DNA of 36,589 nt from Eubacteriales bacterium (GTDB lineage: Bacteria; Bacillota; Clostridia; Oscillospirales; CAG-272). Made by a program: the position numbers and the translations under genes. Location: NCBI GenBank assembly GCA_045646755.1, contig JAZRLJ010000012.1, forward strand, positions 1 to 36,589. Direction: 5' to 3'. Of the stretch, positions 8,061 through 35,514 are shown one piece after another (within the stretch, counting starts at the first letter, position 1; the number at the start of each line of letters is the position of its first letter). The notes below the pieces were generated by a model. That model ran no database searches. It had not been told where the DNA came from and saw nothing but the letters and a program-made list of their open reading frames with translations.

Positions 8061-8678
8061 ATGATAAAAACTGAAATAATCAAAATCAAGGGTGATTGGC
8101 AAGAAGTTGTTGATGATTGTCGTTCTACTGTAGGAAAGGAATCTCTCGGGAAAGAGCCGAGAGAAGAATTCAAGCGCGGGATATTGATTTCGGAACATTC
8201 CCCGATTCGAGATATAATCATTAAATGGCGATGGGCAGATATGCCACATTGGGTGACAGTTCATTGGGTGCGGCATAAGTGGGAAAAATTTGTGCGATCT
8301 CAACGAACAGACCGCACAGGTATTGACCGCGCCAAGCTCACGCAAGATGAGCCGCAGACGTTTATAGGCGAAGCGAATGCACAACACCTCATCGACTCGT
8401 GGCGAAAGAGACTTTGTTATATGGCTTCGCCTGAAACAAGGGAATATGCGGAAGATTTCAAGTTTGTTCTTCAACCAATACAGCCCGAAATATCGGACAC
8501 TCTTGTACCGAACTGTATTTACCGTTGCGGTTGCCCCGAAATGTCGGGATGTGGTTGGTTTGACAAGATGGCGGCAAAATATCCTGCGTTAAAAAGCACG
8601 AATATTAAAGAGCGCTACGATGAGTATAACAAGATTTTTGAAGAGATATGCTTGAGAAAGGAAGATGAGGGGAAATGA
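8061..8678 (+). CDS. ThyX-like (flavin-dependent thymidylate synthase fold) protein
   Basis: SEHSPIRDIIIKWRWADMPHWVTVHWVRHKWEKFVRSQRTDR aligns by eye with the ThyX core EH..FtF.v....r.v..Q..RHR....S.qSqRY, with RHK in place of RHR. Confidence 0.5.
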   Translation: MIKTEIIKIKGDWQEVVDDCRSTVGKESLGKEPREEFKRGILISEHSPIRDIIIKWRWADMPHWVTVHWVRHKWEKFVRSQRTDRTGIDRAKLTQDEPQTFIGEANAQHLIDSWRKRLCYMASPETREYAEDFKFVLQPIQPEISDTLVPNCIYRCGCPEMSGCGWFDKMAAKYPALKSTNIKERYDEYNKIFEEICLRKEDEGK

Positions 8679-8681
8679 AAG
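8654..8681 (+). repeat. Left copy of an exact 28-bp direct repeat
   Basis: GAGAAAGGAAGATGAGGGGAAATGAAAG is identical at 8654-8681 and 9410-9437. It spans a gene's last codons, the SD, the stop and the next start codon. Confidence 0.9.
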
Positions 8682-9289
8682 TTTTAGTAGCGTGTGAAGA
8701 AAGCCAAACTGTTTGCAAAGCGTTCCGCAGAAGAGGGCACGAAGCATATTCTTGTGATATTCAAGAGTGTAGCGGTGGACATCCTGAATGGCACATACAG
8801 GGTGATGTATTGCCGTTGCTGAAAGAAAAGTGGGATTTGATTATTGCTCACCCTCCCTGTCAGTTCTTAACCAATACAGGAAATCCTTATTTGAATGTTG
8901 AAAAGTGGGGAGAAAAAGCAATACAAAGAGCAAAAGACAGAGAGAAAGCATTTGAATTTTTTATGCAGTTTGCAAACGCTAATTGCGATAAAATCTGCAT
9001 TGAAAACCCTATTGGCTATCCGAACACACATTATAGAAAACCAAATCAAATAATTCAGCCGTGGCAATTTGGACACCCATTTACAAAGGCAACTTGTTTG
9101 TGGTTGAAAGGTTTAGAGCCGTTAAAGCATTTTGTGACAGAAAAACCGAAAAATTGTAAATCTTATGCTTATGAAACTATGATTGACGAAAGAGGTAAAA
9201 CAATTTCTTGGAATAGTGAATTGAGCCGTAAATTAAGAAGCAAAACATTTGATGGCATAGCCGAAGCAATGGCAGAACAGTGGGGGTGA
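8675..9289 (+). CDS. Minimal C5-cytosine-methyltransferase-like protein
   Basis: 204 aa. Motifs seen are IAHPPCQFLT (PCQ, motif IV), CIENPIG (ENV-like, motif VI) and a C-terminal RSKTFDGIAEAMAEQW (motif X-like). It is too short to carry a normal target-recognition domain. Confidence 0.5.
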   Translation: MKVLVACEESQTVCKAFRRRGHEAYSCDIQECSGGHPEWHIQGDVLPLLKEKWDLIIAHPPCQFLTNTGNPYLNVEKWGEKAIQRAKDREKAFEFFMQFANANCDKICIENPIGYPNTHYRKPNQIIQPWQFGHPFTKATCLWLKGLEPLKHFVTEKPKNCKSYAYETMIDERGKTISWNSELSRKLRSKTFDGIAEAMAEQWG

Positions 9290-12281: not shown

Positions 12282-13712
12282 TTGACTGAGGAACATATTG
12301 AACGAATGGACGCAAAGGAAGTTCTAAGCAGCATTGAGGTCATAATGGATCTCCCTACCATAGAACGAATGACAGCACAGATGCTTCTGAAAAAGAGGGC
12401 AAAAGAACTTCGGATATTGAGCGCTTTTTCTGCTGCACTACGGTCTTTTCAAGTTCAAGATATGGTTGAAGTATCGGGCGTTATGCTTGAGGTCAACGAG
12501 CGTGGTATCATAAGACAGAGCCGTGACAACTTTCTTGCAGTTATGAAAACTGATCCGATGTTTTCTAAAGTGAGATATAACGTTTTGCGAAATGCTCCCG
12601 AAGTTGAAGAAAACGGACAAAAACGCCGTGTTTCAGACACCGACGACTCGATATGGAAAACATATATTGAGAAGGTATATAAACTTGACAGCGAGTCAAA
12701 ATATAAAGATGCATTCCGAGGCTTGCTTGAGGAAAGGTCTTATGACCCCGTAAAAGATTTGTTTGAAACTCTCGAATGGGACGGCACCCCGAGGTTAGAG
12801 AAATTTCTGATTCGGTGGTTAAAAGTAGAGGACTCTCCATATAGCCGTGAGGTCTCTCGTCTCATATTCGCAGGCGGTGTAAATCGTTTATACAATCCCG
12901 GTTGCAAATTTGACGATATGCCCGTTCTGATCGGCACAAGACAGGGTGAGGGTAAGTCAACTATTGTGCAATGGTTAGCAATGGACGATGAGTTCTATTC
13001 GGAGGCTGTAGACTTCGTTGGGCAGTCCAGCATAGAGCAACTTGAGGGCGCTTGGGTATGCGAGGTCAGCGAGCTTCTCGCTTTGACTAAAGCAAAGGAA
13101 CAGGAGGCCGTTAAAGCATACATAACAAGGCAGACCGACAAATACCGCAAACCTTATGATACACACACAACAGAAATACCGAGACGCTGCGTTTTTATCG
13201 GCACGACCAATAAACGCCAATTCTTAAAAGATTTGAGCGGAGGTCGTAGATTTTACCCGGTTGTAGTTAATAGCGTCGGTTATGAACTATTCAAGGAAGA
13301 AGCGGAATGTCGAGCGTATATCAAGCAATGTTGGGCAGAGGCAAAGGTGAAGTATATGCAGGGCAATATGCCAGCCTATGCTAACCAAGAATACGTTGAA
13401 CAGTACCGTGCAGCTCAATCCGAAGCATCAGAGGACGATTGGCGAATCGGTGTTATTGAGATGTATCTTGACAGGAAAGCAGAGGGCGATACAGTTTGTG
13501 TTAAAGAGATATGCGACAAGGCGCTCTCACGCAATCCCGATATGCCTGATGCGTTCAACAAAGCCGACAGAGCAGAGATAGCGCAGATAATGGACAAGCT
13601 GGACGGATGGGAACGGTGCAGTACCATAAGGACAAGGGATTATGGTATACAAAGGGGATGGGTAAAAACCTCGATGGTTAATCAAGACGGGGATTTGCCA
13701 TTTACGGATTAG
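12282..13712 (+). CDS. VirE-family / P4-type primase-helicase C-terminal domain protein (replication initiator ATPase)
   Basis: 476 aa. Walker A is LIGTRQGEGKSTIVQWL. The context WVCEVSEL...KAYITRQTDKYRKPYD...RRCVFIGTTN is typical of virulence-associated protein E family proteins. Confidence 0.8.
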   Translation: MTEEHIERMDAKEVLSSIEVIMDLPTIERMTAQMLLKKRAKELRILSAFSAALRSFQVQDMVEVSGVMLEVNERGIIRQSRDNFLAVMKTDPMFSKVRYNVLRNAPEVEENGQKRRVSDTDDSIWKTYIEKVYKLDSESKYKDAFRGLLEERSYDPVKDLFETLEWDGTPRLEKFLIRWLKVEDSPYSREVSRLIFAGGVNRLYNPGCKFDDMPVLIGTRQGEGKSTIVQWLAMDDEFYSEAVDFVGQSSIEQLEGAWVCEVSELLALTKAKEQEAVKAYITRQTDKYRKPYDTHTTEIPRRCVFIGTTNKRQFLKDLSGGRRFYPVVVNSVGYELFKEEAECRAYIKQCWAEAKVKYMQGNMPAYANQEYVEQYRAAQSEASEDDWRIGVIEMYLDRKAEGDTVCVKEICDKALSRNPDMPDAFNKADRAEIAQIMDKLDGWERCSTIRTRDYGIQRGWVKTSMVNQDGDLPFTD

Positions 13713-13720
13713 GTAAAAGT

Positions 13721-13977
13721 GTAAACTATCATTGAGATAGTTTACAGATAGTTTACAGATGGTTTACGCCCAAAAAACAGTACCACAGGCTGATTTTTTT
13801 TACTTTGTAAACTATGTAAACTTAAAAAATAGAAAAATATTTATAAAAGATATAAAAATTCAATATAAAAGGTTTTTGCATATACGATAGTTTCGTTTAC
13901 AACTTTGCAAAAAAACAGCATAGAGCAGTACGGGATACTTGTTTTTTTAATGTAAACCAACTTTTGAGATAGTTTAT
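13721..13977. repeat. Iteron cluster with an AT-rich tract: putative phage replication origin
   Basis: Three tandem 11-bp units GAT(A/G)GTTTAC(A/G) sit at 13736-13768. Inverted copies GTAAACTAT occur at 13721-13729, 13807-13815 and 13816-13823. Further copies lie at 13886-13901, 13952-13958 and 13968-13977. An AT-rich core spans 13825-13880. Confidence 0.65.
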
Positions 13978-14000
13978 AAAAATCACGCAGAAAGGATTAA

Positions 14001-14831
14001 ATGGTGTTAAATATGGCAGAAAATAACATAAATGAGCAGAATTATACAGATACTACGGTAATTGAAGCGGCAAACAACACGGATAATGCCAACGTTAAGA
14101 TGGATGTAGCTGAATCGGTGGGCGCAGAGCAGAACGGTGCAGTACAGTCTGTTTCGAATCAGAGTAAGTCCGGTTCGAGTGGTAAGAAGCGAATGGGCAG
14201 ACCGCCAAAGCCGAGAGACCCTAACAAGCCCGAAACGAGAGGTCACAAGACGACGAGGCAGGAAGCGCATGAAAGGAGGGTTAAGGAAGGCATAGAACAC
14301 GCCGCATTGAAAGGATATAGACGACCTGATTTAAAGAAATTTGCAGAGGAAAACTGCCTGCCGGGTGACAATGCCAGAGCGGTGGAGTTTGTTGTCGAGC
14401 TGGGACTATTGCCCCTTGTAGACCTTGCAGATGCTAAAGCGGTTGAATCACGGGTGGTAGAGTTTTTTGAAATTTGTGCCAAGTATGACACCAAACCGCT
14501 AATATCGGGGTTGGCTGATGCGTTAGGAATAGATAGGCGCAGATTGAAGGAGCTTGTTAACGAAACGCCGGGTAGGGAGTTGGGTACGACTTTCGAGTCC
14601 CGGGCGAGTATAAAAAGGGCTTACAATATGATGGAGACTTTATGGGAGCATTATTCGGTCAATGGTAAGATGAACCCGGTCACAGCAATTTTTATGGGCA
14701 AGAACAACTACGGCTATCAGGACAAGGTTGAACTTGTAGCGACTACACAGAGCAAGTTAGTTGATGCGGACGTTGAAAGCTTGGTCGAAGAGGCAAAGCT
14801 GCTTCCGACTTTCACGCACGAAACAGAATAA
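14001..14831 (+). CDS. terS: Terminase small subunit
   Basis: A basic N-terminal region (KKRMGRPPKPRD) is followed by VVEFFEICAKYDTKPLISGLADALGIDRRRLKEL. This matches the TerS pattern YF..C.....P...GLA..LG..R..L. ATG 14013 is an alternative start. Confidence 0.7.
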   Translation: MVLNMAENNINEQNYTDTTVIEAANNTDNANVKMDVAESVGAEQNGAVQSVSNQSKSGSSGKKRMGRPPKPRDPNKPETRGHKTTRQEAHERRVKEGIEHAALKGYRRPDLKKFAEENCLPGDNARAVEFVVELGLLPLVDLADAKAVESRVVEFFEICAKYDTKPLISGLADALGIDRRRLKELVNETPGRELGTTFESRASIKRAYNMMETLWEHYSVNGKMNPVTAIFMGKNNYGYQDKVELVATTQSKLVDADVESLVEEAKLLPTFTHETE

Positions 14832-14833
14832 AA

Positions 14834-14859
14834 GAGTCGGAGCGACTTTGCTCCGACTC
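14834..14859 (+). terminator. Perfect 10-bp hairpin directly after terS
   Basis: GAGTCGGAGC-GACTTT-GCTCCGACTC. A T5 run appears only about 20 nt downstream (14882-14886), so terminator function is uncertain. Confidence 0.5.
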
Positions 14860-14945
14860 TGCGACTTTATGGCGACTTTGCTTTTTAGGGATTGCTTTAT
14901 CAACCGGGGTACAAATTGGCACCCTCTACCGACTCTACCGACTCT
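14843..14945 (+). repeat. Six direct copies of CGACT(T/C)T
   Basis: Copies start at 14843, 14854, 14862, 14873, 14930 and 14939. The last two belong to a tandem ACCGACTCT x2. Confidence 0.8.
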
Positions 14946-15169
14946 ATCAAGCAAGGATGCGGATATGATCAGGTTAATTTGCAGCGGTACAGCGAAACGC
15001 AACGAGCACAACGCCAGCCCAACGCAAACGCACCCACAAGGTCGAAATTTCACGCACAAGCCACAATAATATAATTTATAGATAAATACCCATAATTATA
15101 AAAATCTTCTCAAAACGCAAATTTCAGCCTTATACAGTTATACTATAATATATTATATAATATAATAGC

Positions 15170-15197
15170 CGTTAACGTTTGACCGTCAACGGCTTAA
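15170..15197 (-). terminator. Hairpin terminator downstream of the 15204-15416 ORF
   Basis: AGCCGTTAACG-TTTGAC-CGTCAACGGCT forms an imperfect stem. It lies 6 nt after the stop, and the minus strand continues AT/T-rich. Confidence 0.55.
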
Positions 15198-15203
15198 ATT
15201 TAA

Positions 15204-15416
15204 TTAGGGATAAACAAAAGAATATGCGGGATTATCAAGACCTTGCTCGAGCATTGATACAATAGCCCTTCGACCGCCCTGAGGTATATATACATTTTTT
15301 CCGTCGAGGCTTAAAAAACCTTTATCATCCACATAAAGAGCAAAACCTTTTTTATATACTGCGTTGGGCTTTACAATGCTCCGTTTGTTCTTCATATTAA
15401 CAATGTGAGCCTTCAT
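15204..15416 (-). CDS. 70-aa hypothetical protein
   Basis: A strong AAGGAG SD lies 7 nt upstream of the ATG. Translation begins MKAHIVNMKNKRSIVKPNAVYKKGFALYVDDKGFLSLDGKNVYIPQGG... No family recognised. Confidence 0.7.
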   Translation of the reverse strand: MKAHIVNMKNKRSIVKPNAVYKKGFALYVDDKGFLSLDGKNVYIPQGGRRAIVSMLEQGLDNPAYSFVYP

Positions 15417-15445
15417 ATTTCCATCTCCTTAATATTAAATTATAC

Positions 15446-15474
15446 TTGACTATTTACCGCCGTTCTGATATAAT
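15446..15474 (+). promoter_or_regulatory. Sigma-A promoter for a short plus-strand RNA
   Basis: TTGACT (15446-15451), a 17-nt spacer ending in TGA, then TATAAT (15469-15474). Confidence 0.65.
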
Positions 15475-15480
15475 AATAAT

Positions 15481-15575
15481 CAACAGGTGGCTGCTATGCT
15501 GGTAGCGGTCATCCCTGCTCAATTTATAGTTGAAGAGAATGCCGCTTACTAACCGTTAGCGGTTATTTTCTTTTT
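15481..15575 (+). ncRNA. Candidate ~95-nt sRNA (type I antitoxin candidate) convergent with the toxin-like ORF
   Basis: Runs from the promoter to the hairpin at 15541-15563 and the T-rich tract TATTTTCTTTTT (15564-15575). Its 3' end overlaps the last codons and stop of the minus-strand 27-aa ORF. It also holds an 18-aa ORF (15496-15552, MLVAVIPAQFIVEENAAY) with an AGGTGG SD. Confidence 0.45.
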
Positions 15576-15646
15576 AAGCTTAAAATTAAAGCAACAACGC
15601 TTATAATAAGCTGAAGAAGCTGAAACAGTTCGTCATATGTAACCAT
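15563..15646 (-). CDS. 27-aa hydrophobic peptide, Hol-Tox-like type I toxin candidate
   Basis: A GGAGGTGG SD lies 6 nt upstream of ATG 15646. Translation: MVTYDELFQLLQLIISVVALILSLKRK, one TM helix with a basic C-terminus. It has its own consensus promoter. Confidence 0.6.
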   Translation of the reverse strand: MVTYDELFQLLQLIISVVALILSLKRK

Positions 15647-15703
15647 TTCGCACCACCTCCGCAAAGAAGTGGATAACCATAACCACCCATTGATTACGAT
15701 AAT

Positions 15704-15732
15704 ATTATACACCCATTAATCGTAATTGTCAA
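15704..15732 (-). promoter_or_regulatory. Consensus sigma-A promoter for the toxin-like peptide
   Basis: On the minus strand: TTGACA (15732-15727), a 17-nt spacer, then TATAAT (15709-15704). The inverted repeat ATTACGAT/ATCGTAAT (15693-15700/15719-15726) brackets it. Confidence 0.7.
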
Positions 15733-15896
15733 TAGATTAATGATGATTTCTCGTAAATAGCACCATTGTTTACAATTTAGAAACATTTATAACGCAATTA
15801 AGAGAGAAAGCACCCGAGGGGGATATGCGCCTATCGTCCGACCCGCAATAACCCCCGTCTCCTCCGAAAAAATAAAAAGAAATTTTACGAAAACAC

Positions 15897-15925
15897 TTGA
15901 CAATTTATCGTAAAGGATATATAAT
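15897..15925 (+). promoter_or_regulatory. Consensus sigma-A promoter for the recombinase operon
   Basis: TTGACA (15897-15902), a 17-nt spacer, then TATAAT (15920-15925). Confidence 0.7.
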
Positions 15926-15958
15926 GGTGGTACAGACAAAAAGCAGAGAGGTAGAAAA

Positions 15959-16705
15959 ATGAACGTAATAGGATATATCAGAGTATCGACAGACGGTCAA
16001 TGCGGAGAAGATAAGTTTGGAATGGAAGTACAGAGGGAGCAGATCGAGGCGTACTGCAATAAAAATGATATGACCATCACGAAATGGTACACAGACGAAG
16101 GAGAGTCCGGGGCAAAGCAGAGACCGGGATTTGATGAGATCGTATACGGCGAGGTAGACAATCCACCGTATGAGGCTGTGGTTGTAGCAAAGAGCGACAG
16201 AGTAGCAAGAGACATCAATGTATACTATTACTACAAAATGCTCTTGAACAAGAAGGATATAAAACTCATATCGATAGCAGAGGATTTTGGGCAGTTTGGT
16301 GTGTTTGCGAATATGCTTGAGGCGTTCACCCTTTGTGTAGCCGAAATGGAAAGAGACAACATAACCAAAAGAACAAGTGGCGGCAGAAAGATAAAAGCTG
16401 CAAAAGGCGGCTATAGTGGAGGTAGACCTCCATATGGTTATGCTGCTCAAAACGGCACGTTATCAATAATTCCCCACGAAGCAGAAATTGTAAGATTTGT
16501 TATAAAGTCAAAAGACGAGGGGAAAACGTTTCAATCGATTTGCGATTCGTTGAACGCATCAGGCAAAACCAACAGAAGTGGCACAAAGTTCAGCATTAGT
16601 ACATTGCAGGTTATAATAGATAACAAACCGCTGTATCAAGGAATGTATAAATATGGCAAGGATAGCAAATGGGTAAAAGGTTTGCATAAACCTATCCTTG
16701 AATAA
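15959..16705 (+). CDS. Serine recombinase: resolvase catalytic domain plus a 'recombinase' domain, lacking the zinc-ribbon and coiled-coil
   Basis: MNVIGYIRVSTDGQ carries the catalytic Ser. Other motifs are DEGESG, KSDRVARD and AEMERDNITKRT. GGRPPYGY...EAEIVRFV...LNASG follows, and the ORF stops right after HKPILE, where large serine recombinases normally continue. Confidence 0.85.
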   Translation: MNVIGYIRVSTDGQCGEDKFGMEVQREQIEAYCNKNDMTITKWYTDEGESGAKQRPGFDEIVYGEVDNPPYEAVVVAKSDRVARDINVYYYYKMLLNKKDIKLISIAEDFGQFGVFANMLEAFTLCVAEMERDNITKRTSGGRKIKAAKGGYSGGRPPYGYAAQNGTLSIIPHEAEIVRFVIKSKDEGKTFQSICDSLNASGKTNRSGTKFSISTLQVIIDNKPLYQGMYKYGKDSKWVKGLHKPILE

Positions 16706-16744
16706 CCAACTCCAAAAAATTCTAAAAAACAAAAAGGCGGTCAA

Positions 16745-16819
16745 ATGACCGTAAGCGAATGTTGTGTTGAATTGGGAATAAGCAGGGCTACGTGGTATAA
16801 TGCAGTTGCGAATATGTAA
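16745..16819 (+). CDS. 24-aa HTH-like mini-ORF (possible recombinase or transposase HTH remnant)
   Basis: MTVSECCVELGISRATWYNAVANM. The segment ELGISRATWYNAV looks like a resolvase/HTH_7-type recognition helix. The SD (AAGGCGG) is weak. Confidence 0.35.
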   Translation: MTVSECCVELGISRATWYNAVANM

Positions 16820-16828
16820 GAGGTTAAA

Positions 16829-17146
16829 ATGAATAACTTCAAAATAATATATAAGATATTAAAGCACCTTGAGGCATCACTCGATTATGAAGAAGTGGAT
16901 CTCGCACAGATAACGGCAGAACAGTTAGGCATATCAGAGGTGCGGTGGGAGCAGCTTCTCATAATGCTTTACGAAGAGGGATATATAAGCGGTATTGCGG
17001 TTTCAAAAAGCTTGTCAACCGACAGAAAACAAATATGCAGACCGATACGTCCAAACATAACGCTTAAAGGGCTTGAATATTTAGAAGAAAACTCGGTTAT
17101 GAAGAAGACAGAGAAAATAATCAGAGGCATTTCGGAGATATTATAA
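16829..17146 (+). CDS. YjcQ-family (winged-helix, phage-associated) protein
   Basis: MNNFKIIYKILKHLE...YEEGYISGIAVS...ITLKGLEYLEENSVMKK matches the recalled YjcQ family pattern. Confidence 0.7.
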   Translation: MNNFKIIYKILKHLEASLDYEEVDLAQITAEQLGISEVRWEQLLIMLYEEGYISGIAVSKSLSTDRKQICRPIRPNITLKGLEYLEENSVMKKTEKIIRGISEIL

Positions 17147-17206
17147 AGCGCAAGATACAATTTAATACGGCACTACGGATAGTATGAGTAGTGTAACAGC
17201 CAAAGC

Positions 17207-17256
17207 AAGGGCTATCACATCGTTTCAAAAGAGACGGTGCGGTAGTCCTTTTTTTG
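17207..17256 (+). terminator. Rho-independent terminator at the end of the island, just upstream of terL
   Basis: A ~14-bp imperfect stem (17209-17222/17235-17248) is followed by a T7 run (17249-17255). Confidence 0.7.
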
Positions 17257-17320
17257 TTTGCTTTGGGGCAGAGAGAATTTATTACATCACGAATTGAAAA
17301 GAGAGGAGCTGAACAGCTTG

Positions 17321-18937
17321 ATGAATACAGAATTATTAAACGCTATGAAAATGTTTGAGGAAGCAGGCAAATACGCAAAAGCGCTTGAGTGTTTGGCAAG
17401 GCTTTATGAAGAAGATAAGGAGTCAGCAATAAAGTTCGTGGCACCGTTCAGGCAGAAGCTGACGGACTTAGTGGCATCGGGGCAAGACGTGCGAAACAAT
17501 TACGGAACGCTCAAGAAAACCTATTTGCTTACGGCACAAGACATACTTGATGATTTTCTTATCTACATCGAATGGGAGCGAGATTCAGACAAGAAATTTT
17601 ATCTACCGAGACGAAAGCAGCTAAAGGTGGTAGTTGATGCATTGCAGGATCTTGCAGATGATAAACTTGACTTGCTTACTATCAGTATGCCTCCCGGTGT
17701 TGGTAAATCTGCGACGGCGATATTTGCTCTTGCGTGGTTTGGAGGAAGAAAGCCGAACGAGTCCATACTTGGCGGCTCGCACAACACAGCTTTTCTGCGT
17801 GGTGTATACGACGAATTGAACAGAATACTGCAAGAAGACGGAGAGTATTTGTGGCGTGAGGTTTTTCCTGCTGTTCCGGTAGTAAGAACAAACGCTCAAG
17901 ATATGCTTATTGACCTTGACAAATCAAAGCGTTTTACGACATTTGAATTTACCTCGATCGGAGCAGGCAACGCAGGTAAAGTAAGAGCGACGCAGTTGTT
18001 ATACTGCGATGACCTATGCTCAGGAATAGAAGAGGCAATGTCAAAAGACAGACTTGACACTTTGTGGACGAAATACACGACGGACTTGAAGCAGCGTAAG
18101 ATGGGTAAATGCAAAGAGCTTCACATTGCGACGAGATGGTCGGTACATGATGTAATAGGACGACTTGAGAGAGAACACGCAGGAGACCCACGAGCAAGGT
18201 TTATTGCCATTCCTGCGATAAACGAAGAGGGACAGAGTAACTTCAATTACGCAGGCGGTGTCGGATTCGATACAAAGTTCTTTGAAGAGATGAAAAACAG
18301 CCTTGATGATGTATCTTGGCGAGCATTGTATATGAATCAGCCTATCGAACGTGAAGGGTTACTCTACGATTCAGAAACGCTCCGAAGATTTTACAGATTG
18401 CCTGAAGGAGATCCCGATGCAATACTGTCAATATGCGATACGGCGGAGGGCGGAGGAGACGATACTTTTCTCCCGGTATTTGCAGTTTACGGAAACGACC
18501 ATTATTGCATAGACTGTGTGTGCTCTGATTCGTTACCTGAAGTGACTGACGCTATGTGTGCGGAAATTTTATTAAAGCATAAGGTAAAAATGTGTCAGTT
18601 CGAGTCAAATGCAGCCGGAGGAAGAACCGCAGACAAGATTGAAGACATGGTAAAGAGCAAGGGCGGACACACGCACATAACAAAAAAGCGAACCACCACG
18701 AATAAGGAAACAAAAATTATCGTGAATAGTCCGTTTATCAAGGAAAATGTGCTGTTTCTTGACGAAAAATCAATTGAAAAAGGGTCAATGTATGCCAAAA
18801 TGATGCGGAATTTGTGTTCTTATACTGTTTCGGGCAAAAATAAGCACGACGACGTGCCCGACGGCTTTGCACAGTATGCTCTATTTGTGCAGAATCTCGG
18901 AGCAAACACGGTTCAAATAGTAAAAAGACCGTTTTAA
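17321..18937 (+). CDS. terL: Terminase large subunit
   Basis: Walker A-like SMPPGVGKSATA, Walker B LLYCDDL and a C-terminal nuclease motif KHDDVPDGFAQ. I prefer ATG 17321 downstream of GAGAGGAG over the track start 17258, which lies right after the terminator. Confidence 0.88.
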   Translation: MNTELLNAMKMFEEAGKYAKALECLARLYEEDKESAIKFVAPFRQKLTDLVASGQDVRNNYGTLKKTYLLTAQDILDDFLIYIEWERDSDKKFYLPRRKQLKVVVDALQDLADDKLDLLTISMPPGVGKSATAIFALAWFGGRKPNESILGGSHNTAFLRGVYDELNRILQEDGEYLWREVFPAVPVVRTNAQDMLIDLDKSKRFTTFEFTSIGAGNAGKVRATQLLYCDDLCSGIEEAMSKDRLDTLWTKYTTDLKQRKMGKCKELHIATRWSVHDVIGRLEREHAGDPRARFIAIPAINEEGQSNFNYAGGVGFDTKFFEEMKNSLDDVSWRALYMNQPIEREGLLYDSETLRRFYRLPEGDPDAILSICDTAEGGGDDTFLPVFAVYGNDHYCIDCVCSDSLPEVTDAMCAEILLKHKVKMCQFESNAAGGRTADKIEDMVKSKGGHTHITKKRTTTNKETKIIVNSPFIKENVLFLDEKSIEKGSMYAKMMRNLCSYTVSGKNKHDDVPDGFAQYALFVQNLGANTVQIVKRPF

Positions 18938-18976: not shown

Positions 18977-19142
18977 CCGTCAAAATTTTATTTAAGAAAG
19001 GAGGTAAAAAAACAAAAAACCCATGCCAAGAACAATGGTGTATGTGAAAGGATGTTTTATGTACAAGTATATTATACCACAACATATTGTGGTCAGTCAA
19101 GGGATGTTTGTATAGATTTTCTATATTTTGTGTTTTTTGCAG

Positions 19143-19171
19143 TTGACAATTATAATTCAAAGATATATTAT
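19143..19171 (+). promoter_or_regulatory. Promoter for the metallophosphoesterase gene
   Basis: TTGACA (19143-19148), a 17-nt spacer, then TATTAT (19166-19171). Confidence 0.55.
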
Positions 19172-19210
19172 ATACTTGAAGAGAACGAACGTTTGATAGT
19201 TGGTGATGAT

Positions 19211-19990
19211 ATGTTAAGCTTTTGGCAACCGATAATATTTCACACTCCATACGAACACGAAAACATAGAAATATACGCCTGCTCAGACCAGCACTCAGGT
19301 TCTTGTGATTTTGTCCCTAAACGATGGGATAATTTTGCAAAGCTTCTTGAAAAAGACAACGCTTATGTTATATTTGCAGGCGATCAGATGGAAAACGCCA
19401 CGAAAACGAGCAAAAGCAACTCATACACTCAGGCAATGAGACCGTCAGAGCAGAAGGTATGGTGGATAGACCATCTCAAGCCATATAAAGACAAGATAAT
19501 TTGCATCGTAGACGGAAACCACGAATACAACCGCACGACAAGAGAGGTTGATATGTATCCGCTTTACGATATAGCTTGTGCTCTTGGGATTGAAGAACGG
19601 TATAGATCAGAAGCAGCGTTTGTTGATATTGGTGTGGGCAAGAGAGATAATAAAAGCACACCGAGGCAGTTCCAATACGTTGGATATGTAGTCCACAAAG
19701 CACACAACATCGTAAACTACGGAACGGCTGACGCAATAGAAAATATAGATTTTTTAATATCGGGGCATACGCACAAACCCAACGATAAGCCACTTGGTAA
19801 AATTGGTTTTGATGCAACAAATAAAGTTGTTTATGAACGCACAGTTGAAAACATAGTGTGCGGAAGTTATTTAAGATACGCTGATTATGCAATTCGCAAC
19901 GGAATGAGGCCTTGTTCATCGAAGCAGTACAAGCTCATTCTCGACGGAAAGAAAAAAAGCATAGAAACAGTCGGCTTTCACTTGAATTAG
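19211..19990 (+). CDS. Calcineurin-like metallophosphoesterase
   Basis: The ordered motifs are ACSDQHSG (DxH), FAGDQME (GD), VDGNHEY (GNHE) and ISGHTHKP (GHxH). I prefer ATG 19211 (MLSFWQPIIF...) over the track start 19052, which precedes the promoter. Confidence 0.8.
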   Translation: MLSFWQPIIFHTPYEHENIEIYACSDQHSGSCDFVPKRWDNFAKLLEKDNAYVIFAGDQMENATKTSKSNSYTQAMRPSEQKVWWIDHLKPYKDKIICIVDGNHEYNRTTREVDMYPLYDIACALGIEERYRSEAAFVDIGVGKRDNKSTPRQFQYVGYVVHKAHNIVNYGTADAIENIDFLISGHTHKPNDKPLGKIGFDATNKVVYERTVENIVCGSYLRYADYAIRNGMRPCSSKQYKLILDGKKKSIETVGFHLN

Positions 19991-33488: not shown

Positions 33489-34100
33489 ATGGCAACAAGA
33501 ACGCAAGTTAACGCTTTTATAGACAAGCTTTCCGTTCTTGCTATATCCGAATGTATACAGAGAGATAAAAAAATATGTCCTTCTGTTTGCATAGCGCAGG
33601 CAGCACTTGAGACCGGATGGGGCACATCCTCTCTTATGCTAAAGGCTAATGCCTATTTCGGAATTAAAGCTACCGGATGGAGCGGCAAAGTCTATAACGC
33701 AAAAACAAAAGAGTCTTACGACGGTAAGACCCTTGTAAACACATCGGCATATTTTAGAGCTTACGACAGTCTGTCTGATTCGGTGAAAGACTACTACGAT
33801 CTTTTAACCAATTCAAGCAGATATGCCAAAGCTGTCAACGAACCTGATGCAACAAAATGTATTAAGGCAATCAAAGCCGGGGGTTATGCTACAGACCCTC
33901 TCTATGTATCAAAGATAACAAGCATTATAAAAACATACGGACTCACAAAGTATGATGTATGTATGAAAGATACAAAGCAGCCAAAATACGCAGACCTTGT
34001 TGCTAAAAAGTGCGGACTTGAAAAGCAGACTGTAGATTATATTAACGCATATACTTATGCGGATGCTTTGTGGGAAAAATTGTACAAGCAGATGGTATAA
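33489..34100 (+). CDS. Endolysin, GH73 N-acetylglucosaminidase domain
   Basis: IAQAALETGWGTS...NAYFGIKA...YFRAY...GYATDPLY is the mannosyl-glycoprotein endo-beta-N-acetylglucosaminidase signature. Confidence 0.85.
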   Translation: MATRTQVNAFIDKLSVLAISECIQRDKKICPSVCIAQAALETGWGTSSLMLKANAYFGIKATGWSGKVYNAKTKESYDGKTLVNTSAYFRAYDSLSDSVKDYYDLLTNSSRYAKAVNEPDATKCIKAIKAGGYATDPLYVSKITSIIKTYGLTKYDVCMKDTKQPKYADLVAKKCGLEKQTVDYINAYTYADALWEKLYKQMV

Positions 34101-34473: not shown

Positions 34474-35514
34474 TTATAATTTATTGGTTATTTCTCGCAA
34501 ATCTTCATACGAAACGTCTTGATAATACTGCAACATTTTGACGTCTGTGTGTCCTATCAAGCGGAGTTTATCTCGATCAGGAGCAGTAACATTCTTCAGC
34601 AGAGTTGCAAAAGTATGTCGGCACGAATGGGGCGTTAACGTATGGTCTGACTCGCTCTGTATTCCCATTTTTGACAACGCTTTGTAGAACTCCTTGTAAT
34701 AGACCTTTTGCGACATCTTAGAGCCGTCTTTGCTGAACAGATATCCATCAGGGTTAGTTTCTGCAAATCGTTCAATCAAGGGCAAAATTTTAGGTGAGAC
34801 GGTAACGATTCTGTTCTTCCCTGCCTCTGTCTTGATACCACCTTTAAGTGCTTTTTCTTCAGCGTCAAAATCGGAGGATTTAAGAGAAAGCAGCTCTTGC
34901 GGACGGAAACCTAAATAACAATGGCAATATATGATATCCGCAAACGGAACGACCCCTGCGCTATTTTTTATAATTTCCAATTCGTCAAGGTTAAATCCTC
35001 TCTTGTTTGACTGTACTGTTCCGGCTTTTACCTTAATATATTGCGGATAGTTTATGCGACCGACGTTATACCCTCTCGGTACAGCCCACTTATATATAAG
35101 ACCAAGAGCTATTTTTGCATTCTGACGAGTTCGAGTACCCTTATCCGTATTGTCTATGCAAGACTGCAGATCGTCTATATCCTGATTCGAGAGGTATATA
35201 TCCCAACACGGCTCAAATAATTTGAAACCCGATGCGTAGCAATTTATCGTGAGCCTTGAGGCTTCATAGTTTTCAATCCACTTATCATAAGCATCTTTAA
35301 GTGTAATTTCTCTTGGCTTTTCGGACATTTCTTTTTTAAGCTCGATTATATATTCAAGAGCCTTTGTTTTCGTCGGAAAGCCTTGTTTTGTCCTACGAAT
35401 AGGATTGCCGTCTGGCTTGTAACCTACGACGGCAATAGCTTTCCAATTGTTTACACCGACACGAATCGCAGAGCCTTGTCCGTTTCCTCTGCGTTTTATA
35501 CCTTTTTTTGCCAT
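34474..35514 (-). CDS. int: Tyrosine integrase
   Basis: 346 aa. The C-terminal catalytic motifs are HSCRHTFATLL and LIGHTDVKMLQYY. An N-terminal SAM-like/arm-binding region is present. Confidence 0.92.
   Translation of the reverse strand: MAKKGIKRRGNGQGSAIRVGVNNWKAIAVVGYKPDGNPIRRTKQGFPTKTKALEYIIELKKEMSEKPREITLKDAYDKWIENYEASRLTINCYASGFKLFEPCWDIYLSNQDIDDLQSCIDNTDKGTRTRQNAKIALGLIYKWAVPRGYNVGRINYPQYIKVKAGTVQSNKRGFNLDELEIIKNSAGVVPFADIIYCHCYLGFRPQELLSLKSSDFDAEEKALKGGIKTEAGKNRIVTVSPKILPLIERFAETNPDGYLFSKDGSKMSQKVYYKEFYKALSKMGIQSESDHTLTPHSCRHTFATLLKNVTAPDRDKLRLIGHTDVKMLQYYQDVSYEDLREITNKL

Follow-up and report, generated by a model that had tools for sequence, protein, structure and literature searches.

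The interval between terS and terL in a large clade of gut siphophages is probably a fixed accessory slot that carries a serine recombinase

In tailed phages, the genes of the small and the large terminase, terS and terL, are normally adjacent. In the DNA analysed here, a contig of 36,589 nucleotides from a Eubacteriales bacterium (GenBank assembly GCA_045646755.1, contig JAZRLJ010000012.1; the whole of it is referred to as the window), about 2.4 kb lie between them. This interval holds a hairpin with a heptamer array, two minus-strand genes, a pair of divergent promoters and a plus-strand unit made up of a serine recombinase, a helix-turn-helix (HTH) mini open reading frame (ORF) and a YjcQ-family gene, followed by a terminator-like hairpin. 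A sequence-only reading had listed the features between the two genes, and each was found at its given coordinates (Table 1). It had described the interval as a carrier of accessory genes, which was borne out, and had considered that it might be a mobile or excisable insertion, which was not. We think it likely, taking together the scaffold, the exchange of cargo and the role of the recombinase as set out below, that the interval is a fixed, lineage-wide accessory slot in a large clade of gut Firmicutes siphophages, and not an inserted island. The phages of this clade combine a P22 gp3-type TerS with an SPP1-type portal.

Relatives were obtained via protein homologues of TerL and with a TerL alignment query, which yielded 80 loci from IMG/VR (more than 560 IMG/VR matches). 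All loci were scanned with purpose-built hidden Markov models for terS and the recombinase. In the following, W denotes the window phage, and L001 and similar labels denote the loci of relatives. Searches for close relatives with exact peptides found none. The TerL family itself is large, with at least 8000 homologues at E <= 1e-20 in the protein search, and the start of terL is supported by a 538-aa homologue, 99% identical, that begins at the same ATG.

In the 51 relatives with both terminase genes (TerL 53-99% identical), the distance from terS to terL ranged from 1723 to 6411 bp with a median of 4355 bp; adjacent genes or a gap below 1.7 kb occurred in none of them. A plus-strand serine recombinase lay inside the gap in 44 loci (about 86%). 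The recombinase was at most 3.5 kb from terL in 59 of the 68 loci with at least 2.5 kb of upstream DNA, and when the search was made from the recombinase side, the terL family was found within 2.5 kb downstream in 72 of 76 loci with enough downstream DNA. The contigs of eight TerL homologues (99% and 57-68% identical) have one common gene order: terS, variable and mostly minus-strand genes, the plus-strand serine recombinase, none to two small plus-strand genes, and terL; the shortened contigs among them show the terL-proximal part of this order. Order and gap are kept even in a fecal phage scaffold whose TerL is only 37% identical. The recombinase-less gaps (seven of the 51) still contain 2.6-5 kb of assorted small genes, and one of them, of 2.65 kb, belongs to the genome of the isolated Clostridium phage Maintenon. 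The comparison with relatives that the sequence-only reading had proposed thus turned up no uninterrupted terS-terL pair, an outcome which that reading had itself named beforehand as speaking against an island.

From left to right, the slot would comprise a hairpin and a forward CGACTYT heptamer array just after terS, a leftward cargo bay between a conserved promoter, P(-), and a conserved terminator, a control region with divergent promoters, and the serine recombinase gene. In the window the latter encodes a compact derivative of the large serine recombinases (LSRs), consisting of the catalytic domain and the LSR-type recombinase domain (RD) only. A second, rightward cargo bay would follow after the recombinase, and a conserved terminator hairpin directly before terL.

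Table 1. Features of the terS-terL region of the window
Position	Strand	Feature	Evidence and remarks
14001-14831	+	terS (P22 gp3-type small terminase, 276 aa)	PF16677 GP3_package 7e-08, 33 bits (cut-off 29.4); phrog_606
14833-14860	+	Hairpin	12-bp stem; 75-nt fold -30 kcal/mol, z = -5.8
14833-14945	+	Hairpin and CGACT(T/C)T heptamer array, a conserved backbone cis-element	Fold z, clade-wide enrichment
15019-15194	-	AT-rich conserved spacer ending in predicted cargo-bay terminator (hairpin 15194-15167)	Hairpin -18.8 kcal/mol, z = -6.0
15204-15416	-	70-aa moron (cargo)	AAGGAG Shine-Dalgarno; 45 homologue clusters
15446-15575	+	Candidate antitoxin small RNA, ~95 nt	Promoter 15446-15474, terminator 15550-15575; fold z = -4.0
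15563-15643	-	27-aa hydrophobic Lys-tailed peptide, type I toxin-like (cargo)	GGAGGTGG Shine-Dalgarno, structured leader
15694-15725		O1, TTACGA-N20-TCGTAA, probable recombinase docking site	Covers -10 and spacer of P(-)
15732-15704	-	P(-), predicted leftward cargo-bay promoter, conserved scaffold	12/12 TTGACA-17-TATAAT
15885-15913		O2, TTACGA-N17-TCGTAA	Embraces -35 of recombinase promoter
15897-15925	+	P(+), predicted recombinase operon promoter	12/12 TTGACA-17-TATAAT
15959-16705	+	Compact serine recombinase, 248 aa	PF00239 and PF07508; catalytic domain, helix E, LSR-type RD
16745-16819	+	24-aa HTH mini-ORF, remnant	Matches C-terminal HTH of small serine recombinase
16829-17146	+	YjcQ-family protein, 105 aa, second-bay cargo	PF09639 9e-25; phrog_3675
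17211-17256 (stem 17211-17249)	+	Intrinsic terminator-like hairpin and T7	121-nt fold -45 kcal/mol, z = -6.0
17321-18937	+	terL (large terminase, 538 aa)	phrog_38 2e-54; PF22530, PF03237

Both ends of the interval are formed by elements that recur throughout the relatives. In the window, the 300 nt after terS contain six forward heptamers of the form CGACT(T/C)T, whereas all the rest contains two. Over 47 distinct sequences, the heptamer density is 7.9 per kb in these 300 nt and 0.24 per kb elsewhere, a roughly 33-fold difference, and 109 of the 111 copies point forward. It is a reasonable guess that the array (14842-14945 in the window) is a candidate pac or TerS-binding site. At 14929-14950 the window also has 9-bp tandem units (CCGACTCTA) whose sequence and number differ in close relatives (a loose end at 14950 in run X1).

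At the other end, 64 of 88 loci were found by a crude scan to have a hairpin with a T-run ahead of terL, and longer versions in L005 and L011 were missed by the scan yet are present. An alignment of 28 sequences gave a 12-bp outer stem with compensatory changes in six of the 12 pairs. The covariance model built for this hairpin scored the window copy at 33.7 bits, a value that is not independent as the window was in the training set. In 16 loci or more, the model also detected another copy immediately behind terL and ahead of the portal gene. In these relatives (within L015-L086, the copy behind terL at about 8550-8750 of each locus), the same RNA or DNA element thus stands on either side of terL in direct orientation; the pre-terL copy lies at 17203-17263 in the window.

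By its conservation, the pre-terL terminator appears to be an ancestral control feature and not a side-effect of an insertion. In many relatives the distance from the T-run to the start of terL is only about 13-24 nt (start calls are approximate), which leaves little room for a promoter. The earlier suggestion that terL lies beyond a real terminator and needs read-through or antitermination therefore stands, and the internal terL promoter offered as the alternative finds little space in many relatives. Transcription would then have to pass the conserved hairpin, by read-through or antitermination, for terL to be expressed. Together, the conserved terminator hairpins that flank terL point to an antitermination-type control of late genes.

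The recombinase shows no signs of decay. Its catalytic motifs YIRVST and DRVAR are intact, and compared with the L005 protein (79% identical) dN is 0.16 with dS saturated, which indicates that it is under purifying selection. An AlphaFold2 model (pLDDT 86.5) had as its top Foldseek matches Bxb1, SprA, the N-terminal domain and RD of phiC31, and the RD of LI integrase. The protein aligns only to residues 14-258 of SprA and 9-246 of CcrB and ends at residue 248 (...HKPILE), directly after the RD. It thus has the catalytic Ser domain and RD of an LSR, and the zinc ribbon with its embedded coiled coil is absent. Intact motifs, the substitution pattern and the LSR fold together argue that it is a functional compact LSR derivative and not a decaying pseudogene.

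Two types of recombinase are found at the same position in relatives, one of 190-221 aa with a C-terminal HTH and one of 248-266 aa that resembles the window protein. The HTH mini-ORF behind the window recombinase matches the former: its peptide corresponds to ...SVSECCKELGISRATWY of the L003 and L008 recombinases, and its DNA is 76-79% identical to the 3' ends of their genes. In the window it stands in frame behind the single TAA of the recombinase with no further stop, so that a fusion of the two by stop-codon read-through was considered. In close relatives, however, a 1-nt indel at 16723 in the linker shifts the frame, which makes read-through unlikely, and together with the nucleotide match to the other recombinase type this led us to reject it. 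The mini-ORF is, judged from these matches, the leftover C-terminal HTH of a small serine recombinase of 190 aa. A remnant of one type behind a gene of the other implies that the recombinase module was replaced in place at least once.

Such a replacement, the presence of 190-aa resolvase-like and 248-280-aa LSR-derived recombinases at one position, and the location of a recombinase inside the interval are what one might expect if the whole of 14832-17257 had been inserted and were removed by the recombinase on induction, or moved as a unit. Yet the gap is closed in none of the 51 relatives, Maintenon among them. The window itself looks like a complete phage genome in the attP, i.e. non-integrated, order: about 370 bp separate the lysin gene (33489-34100) from the tyrosine integrase gene behind it (34474-35514), and minus-strand lysogeny-side genes extend over both window ends. 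Judged from this lysin-attP-integrase arrangement, the window has the gene order of a non-integrated genome, and the terS-terL interval is still present in it. A terminal overlap that would indicate circularity of the window was not found and one ORF continues only 23 codons over the joined ends, which is weak, so that the non-integrated order is better argued from the adjacency of lysin and integrase. Recombinase-mediated removal on induction, as speculated in the sequence-only reading, is therefore not borne out.

Nor does the interval have the borders of an insertion. The 8-mer TTTGCTTT is present at 14877 and 17257, as had been noted together with the caution that it is no evidence. It was rejected as a border repeat, since with 10 copies in the window it marks no border, and beyond this common 8-mer no repeats or att-like sites were found at the interval borders. 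The elements that would delimit the island, i.e. the hairpin with the heptamer array and the pre-terL terminator, belong to the conserved backbone. Finally, the recombinase lacks the zinc-ribbon and coiled-coil domains, and we know of no way in which a serine recombinase without them could tell att sites apart. An excisable or mobile island is hence close to refuted, and we regard it as extremely improbable.

What does change between relatives is the content of the slot. Breakpoints were read from Logan contigs of relatives aligned to the window (contigs that share at most 0.35 of the window words). These contigs share 15019-15194 and the sequence from 15694 onward, and they break repeatedly at 15194, at about 15435-15474 and at 15694, with unrelated sequence in between (e.g. 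262 bp in place of 219 bp). Position 15694 is about 3 nt into the predicted P(-) transcript, and 15194 is the top of the minus-strand terminator hairpin. The P(-) region (15690-15759) is kept in L005, L011, L054 and L094, whose downstream cargo differs, and between W and L001, with TerL 99% identical, the sequence left of 15704 is unrelated. Phages that are otherwise nearly identical thus carry different cargo at one position, and this cargo has a promoter and a terminator of its own, which is what defines a moron or accessory hotspot. To the right, the distance from the recombinase to terL varies between 38 and 3265 bp in relatives, and the gene found there differs or is absent; the idea that YjcQ might be the true TerS was rejected on the same grounds.

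The conserved flanks around differing content indicate that the scaffold is fixed and the cargo exchanged. As far as the alignments tell, what can be swapped is limited to some 500 bp (15194-15694) and to the DNA between the stop codon of the recombinase and the terminator, with the HTH remnant and YjcQ; the scaffold appears to supply promoter and terminator, and the transcribed content is replaced. The sharp breakpoints would mark where cargo passes from phage to phage, and homologous recombination within the conserved flanks is the simplest route for this.

The cargo of the left bay consists of two units. The 70-aa protein has homologues of 61-91% identity, nearly all of 70 aa, and in unrelated prophages the family is located in the accessory region between lysis and integrase genes, which is typical moron behaviour. 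No Pfam, NCBIfam or PADLOC match was obtained for it, and PADLOC and NCBIfam assigned no family to the 27-aa peptide and YjcQ either. The second unit resembles a type I toxin-antitoxin pair. The candidate small RNA converges on the mRNA of the toxin-like peptide and is complementary to its 3' part, and its promoter matches the consensus at 11 of 12 positions with an extended TG. Promoter-like sites overall are not above expectation (13 against 10.4 in shuffles) and perfect matches are rare. A similar 27-aa hydrophobic Lys-tailed peptide lies beneath the same conserved promoter in L011/L012. Rfam gave no match on 13600-17500 and Pfam none for the window peptide; the one faint match, to Hol_Tox (E = 0.32), concerned the L011 peptide and not that of the window. 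By anatomy only, i.e. a small hydrophobic ORF and an overlapping antisense RNA with its own predicted promoter and terminator, peptide and convergent RNA form a candidate type I toxin-like module. In the right bay, a promoter-like site (TTGGGA-18-TATAAT with TG) was observed at 16772-16801, inside the HTH remnant and just upstream of yjcQ, which may have its own promoter there.

The control region between the two bays contains the palindromes O1 and O2, the only perfect TTACGA-N17/20-TCGTAA palindromes in the window. Five of the 21 copies of TTACGA/TCGTAA in the whole window fall into 15694-15913. That these sites belong to the recombinase is suggested by their variation. Between W and L001, TerL is 99.3% identical and the catalytic domains of the recombinases are 92-100% identical at the nucleotide level, whereas the RD reaches only 42-64%; alongside this difference, two half-sites of L001 are changed from TCGTAA to GCGTAA. 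In 72 distinct homologue loci, the identity of the base that precedes CGTAA follows a loop of the RD: T goes with NRSGTKFS, C with NKSG (in two separate lineages), and A with TR(R/N)GK...QSIW. A palindrome that embraces the -35 element occurs in 12 distinct loci, and both half-sites carry the same variable base in eight of them. A further observation comes from L113-L148 (contigs of about 55-60 kb), which have a perfect 16-bp palindrome AACGTAAATTTACGTT and ACGTAA-type half-sites some 200-300 nt ahead of the recombinase gene, and whose recombinase differs in the RD loop; this fits the domain-to-site code.

Docking of the recombinase on both promoters via O1 and O2 is therefore probable, on evidence that is good though indirect. 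The overlap of O1 and O2 with the promoters suggests an autoregulation like that at res. Most likely, recombinase bound at O1 and O2 would repress both P(-) and its own promoter, as resolvase of Tn3/gamma-delta does at res.

Since homology breaks at 15694, which is the outer edge of O1 as well as the transcript start, O1 at the mouth of the cargo bay could also be thought to act like an integron attI, with the recombinase inserting and excising cassettes site-specifically. Extra TTACGAT/ATCGT motifs just inside the different cargo of some relatives would fit this, as would the separate breakpoints of the toxin module and the 70-aa gene and the occurrence of the 70-aa family in other accessory regions. 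However, a serine recombinase would cut in the centre of the palindrome, whereas the break in homology is at its edge; no repeated site was found at the other boundaries (15194 and about 15435-15474); and gaps without a recombinase are equally variable. Homologous recombination in the conserved flanks is the simpler explanation, and cassette capture by the recombinase seems very improbable to us.

The recombinase gene adjoins the variable segment, and as a Gin/Hin-like invertase the enzyme might flip the cargo block between terS and its own gene, thereby switching the genes under fixed promoters. Homologous cargo blocks do occur in both orientations with reversed gene order (L016/L019 versus L017/L024), as inversion of a whole block would give. 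But opposite orientations were seen only between sequences that are at most 82% identical, and pairs of at least 88% identity showed no inverted matches (80 further loci; contigs only). Inverted repeats at the block boundaries reach at most 12 bp, none of them convincing. In relatives the cargo is replaced and not flipped, the loose ends at 15194 and 15694 not being reverse complements of the window. Neither of the hallmarks of Hin/Gin/Cin systems, flanking inverted sites and both orientations in near-identical genomes, was found. Moreover, no second recombinase-type site or palindrome was found in the window outside the control region. A single site, the lack of flanking inverted repeats and the lack of a recent inversion make both inversion and excision unlikely, and an invertible segment is in our view improbable.

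For the recombinase of the slot this would leave the resolution of dimers or concatemers, the cyclisation of terminally redundant DNA, or a mainly regulatory function. Its substrate would probably be the same site on another copy of the genome (in a dimer, a concatemer or a terminal redundancy) and probably not the island borders. A more specific proposal can be made, albeit a rather unlikely one. The recombinase and the cluster of palindromic sites may be kept between terS and terL because this position immediately follows the packaging start (the heptamer array), so that the terminally redundant DNA of the first headful would carry the site at either end. This would allow a RecA-independent circularisation of the injected genome, and the same complex would double as the repressor of the cargo promoter. 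If true, the slot would hold a serine-recombinase counterpart of Cre-loxP of P1, with its accessory genes under recombinase control. The role of the recombinase is the most interesting point of the slot.

Several observations weigh against the interpretation as a whole. Seven of the 51 gaps have no recombinase, which means that it is dispensable for the slot. The co-variation of half-sites and RD comes from a modest number of lineages and partly reflects shared descent, and L001, although its RD differs, still has one TTACGA half-site upstream of the promoter. O1 and O2 are separated by 190 bp, whereas a res site is compact. The mechanism proposed for cargo exchange, finally, is drawn from breakpoints only.

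The packaging module seems to offer room for accessory genes at one more position. Between terL and the portal gene, the window has a metallophosphoesterase gene (19052-19990), which is also present in L001, L005, L006 and L007 and absent in L002, L003 and L008; L006 and L007 have an additional 52-aa NrdD-like ORF there. The position of the metallophosphoesterase gene is a second accessory slot of the packaging module. Three TerL homologues (P0034, P0095 and P0115) are unusual in themselves: one has 903 aa with homing-endonuclease/intein domains (PF05204, PF14528), and the other two, of 661-669 aa, are extended by an HTH_17 domain at the N-terminus.

The clade is very large and common in human and bovine gut metagenomes. 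Recognising a fixed slot with a defined scaffold avoids its mis-annotation as an insertion and shows where accessory genes should be sought, namely toxin modules and possibly genes for defence or counter-defence. The link between RD and palindrome amounts to a code of protein-DNA specificity, open to direct testing, for a minimal LSR-derived enzyme. We found no prior description of the slot in the literature that was searched, most subscription journals lying outside its coverage.

Parts of the slot have counterparts in known systems. The toxin-like module resembles txpA/RatA and bsrG/SR4 of B. subtilis prophages, type I systems whose antisense RNA overlaps at the 3' end, and the Hol-Tox peptides in its short hydrophobic peptide with a basic tail. 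It shares with txpA/RatA and bsrG/SR4 a structured leader around the Shine-Dalgarno sequence and a convergent small RNA with a strong promoter and a terminator, both predicted here. It differs from them in that no family match was obtained (none in Rfam, and Hol_Tox only at E = 0.32 for the peptide of a relative). The recombinase agrees with the LSRs (Bxb1, phiC31, TP901-1, SPbeta SprA, CcrB) in catalytic domain, helix E and RD, by sequence and by predicted fold. Unlike these, it stops after the RD, its gene lies in mid-genome and not at attP, and the phage has a separate tyrosine integrase.

The arrangement of the control region recalls Tn3 and gamma-delta, whose resolvase binds res between the divergent genes tnpA and tnpR and represses both. 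As there, and as in Sin and beta recombinase, a region with divergent promoters precedes the serine recombinase gene. Palindromes of unequal spacing (about 34 and 29 bp overall), here putative sites, overlap both promoters, and the site sequence co-varies with the DNA-binding domain. In contrast to Tn3 and gamma-delta, this domain is an LSR-type RD and not a small HTH, the sites are spread over 190 bp instead of a compact 114-bp res, and there is no transposon. In phage P1, Cre-loxP sits near pac, and cyclisation of terminally redundant DNA has been proposed as its function. Similarly, the distance from the probable start region of packaging to the recombinase and its single putative site is no more than about 1 kb here, and with a site so close to the start, the terminal redundancy of the first headful would often contain a second copy of it. 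Cre, however, is a tyrosine recombinase, and pac and cyclisation are only candidates in the present case.

As a whole, the slot is most like the morons of lambdoid phages and the accessory or defence hotspots of P2/P4-like phages. With these it shares autonomous units of promoter, gene and terminator between conserved late genes, cargo that varies at fixed positions in near-identical phages such as W and L001, and probable expression of the cargo from the prophage. It differs from them in splitting terS from terL, which are otherwise adjacent, in keeping its own frame of promoter and terminator while the cargo changes, and in its link to a serine recombinase, seen in about 86% of the relatives.

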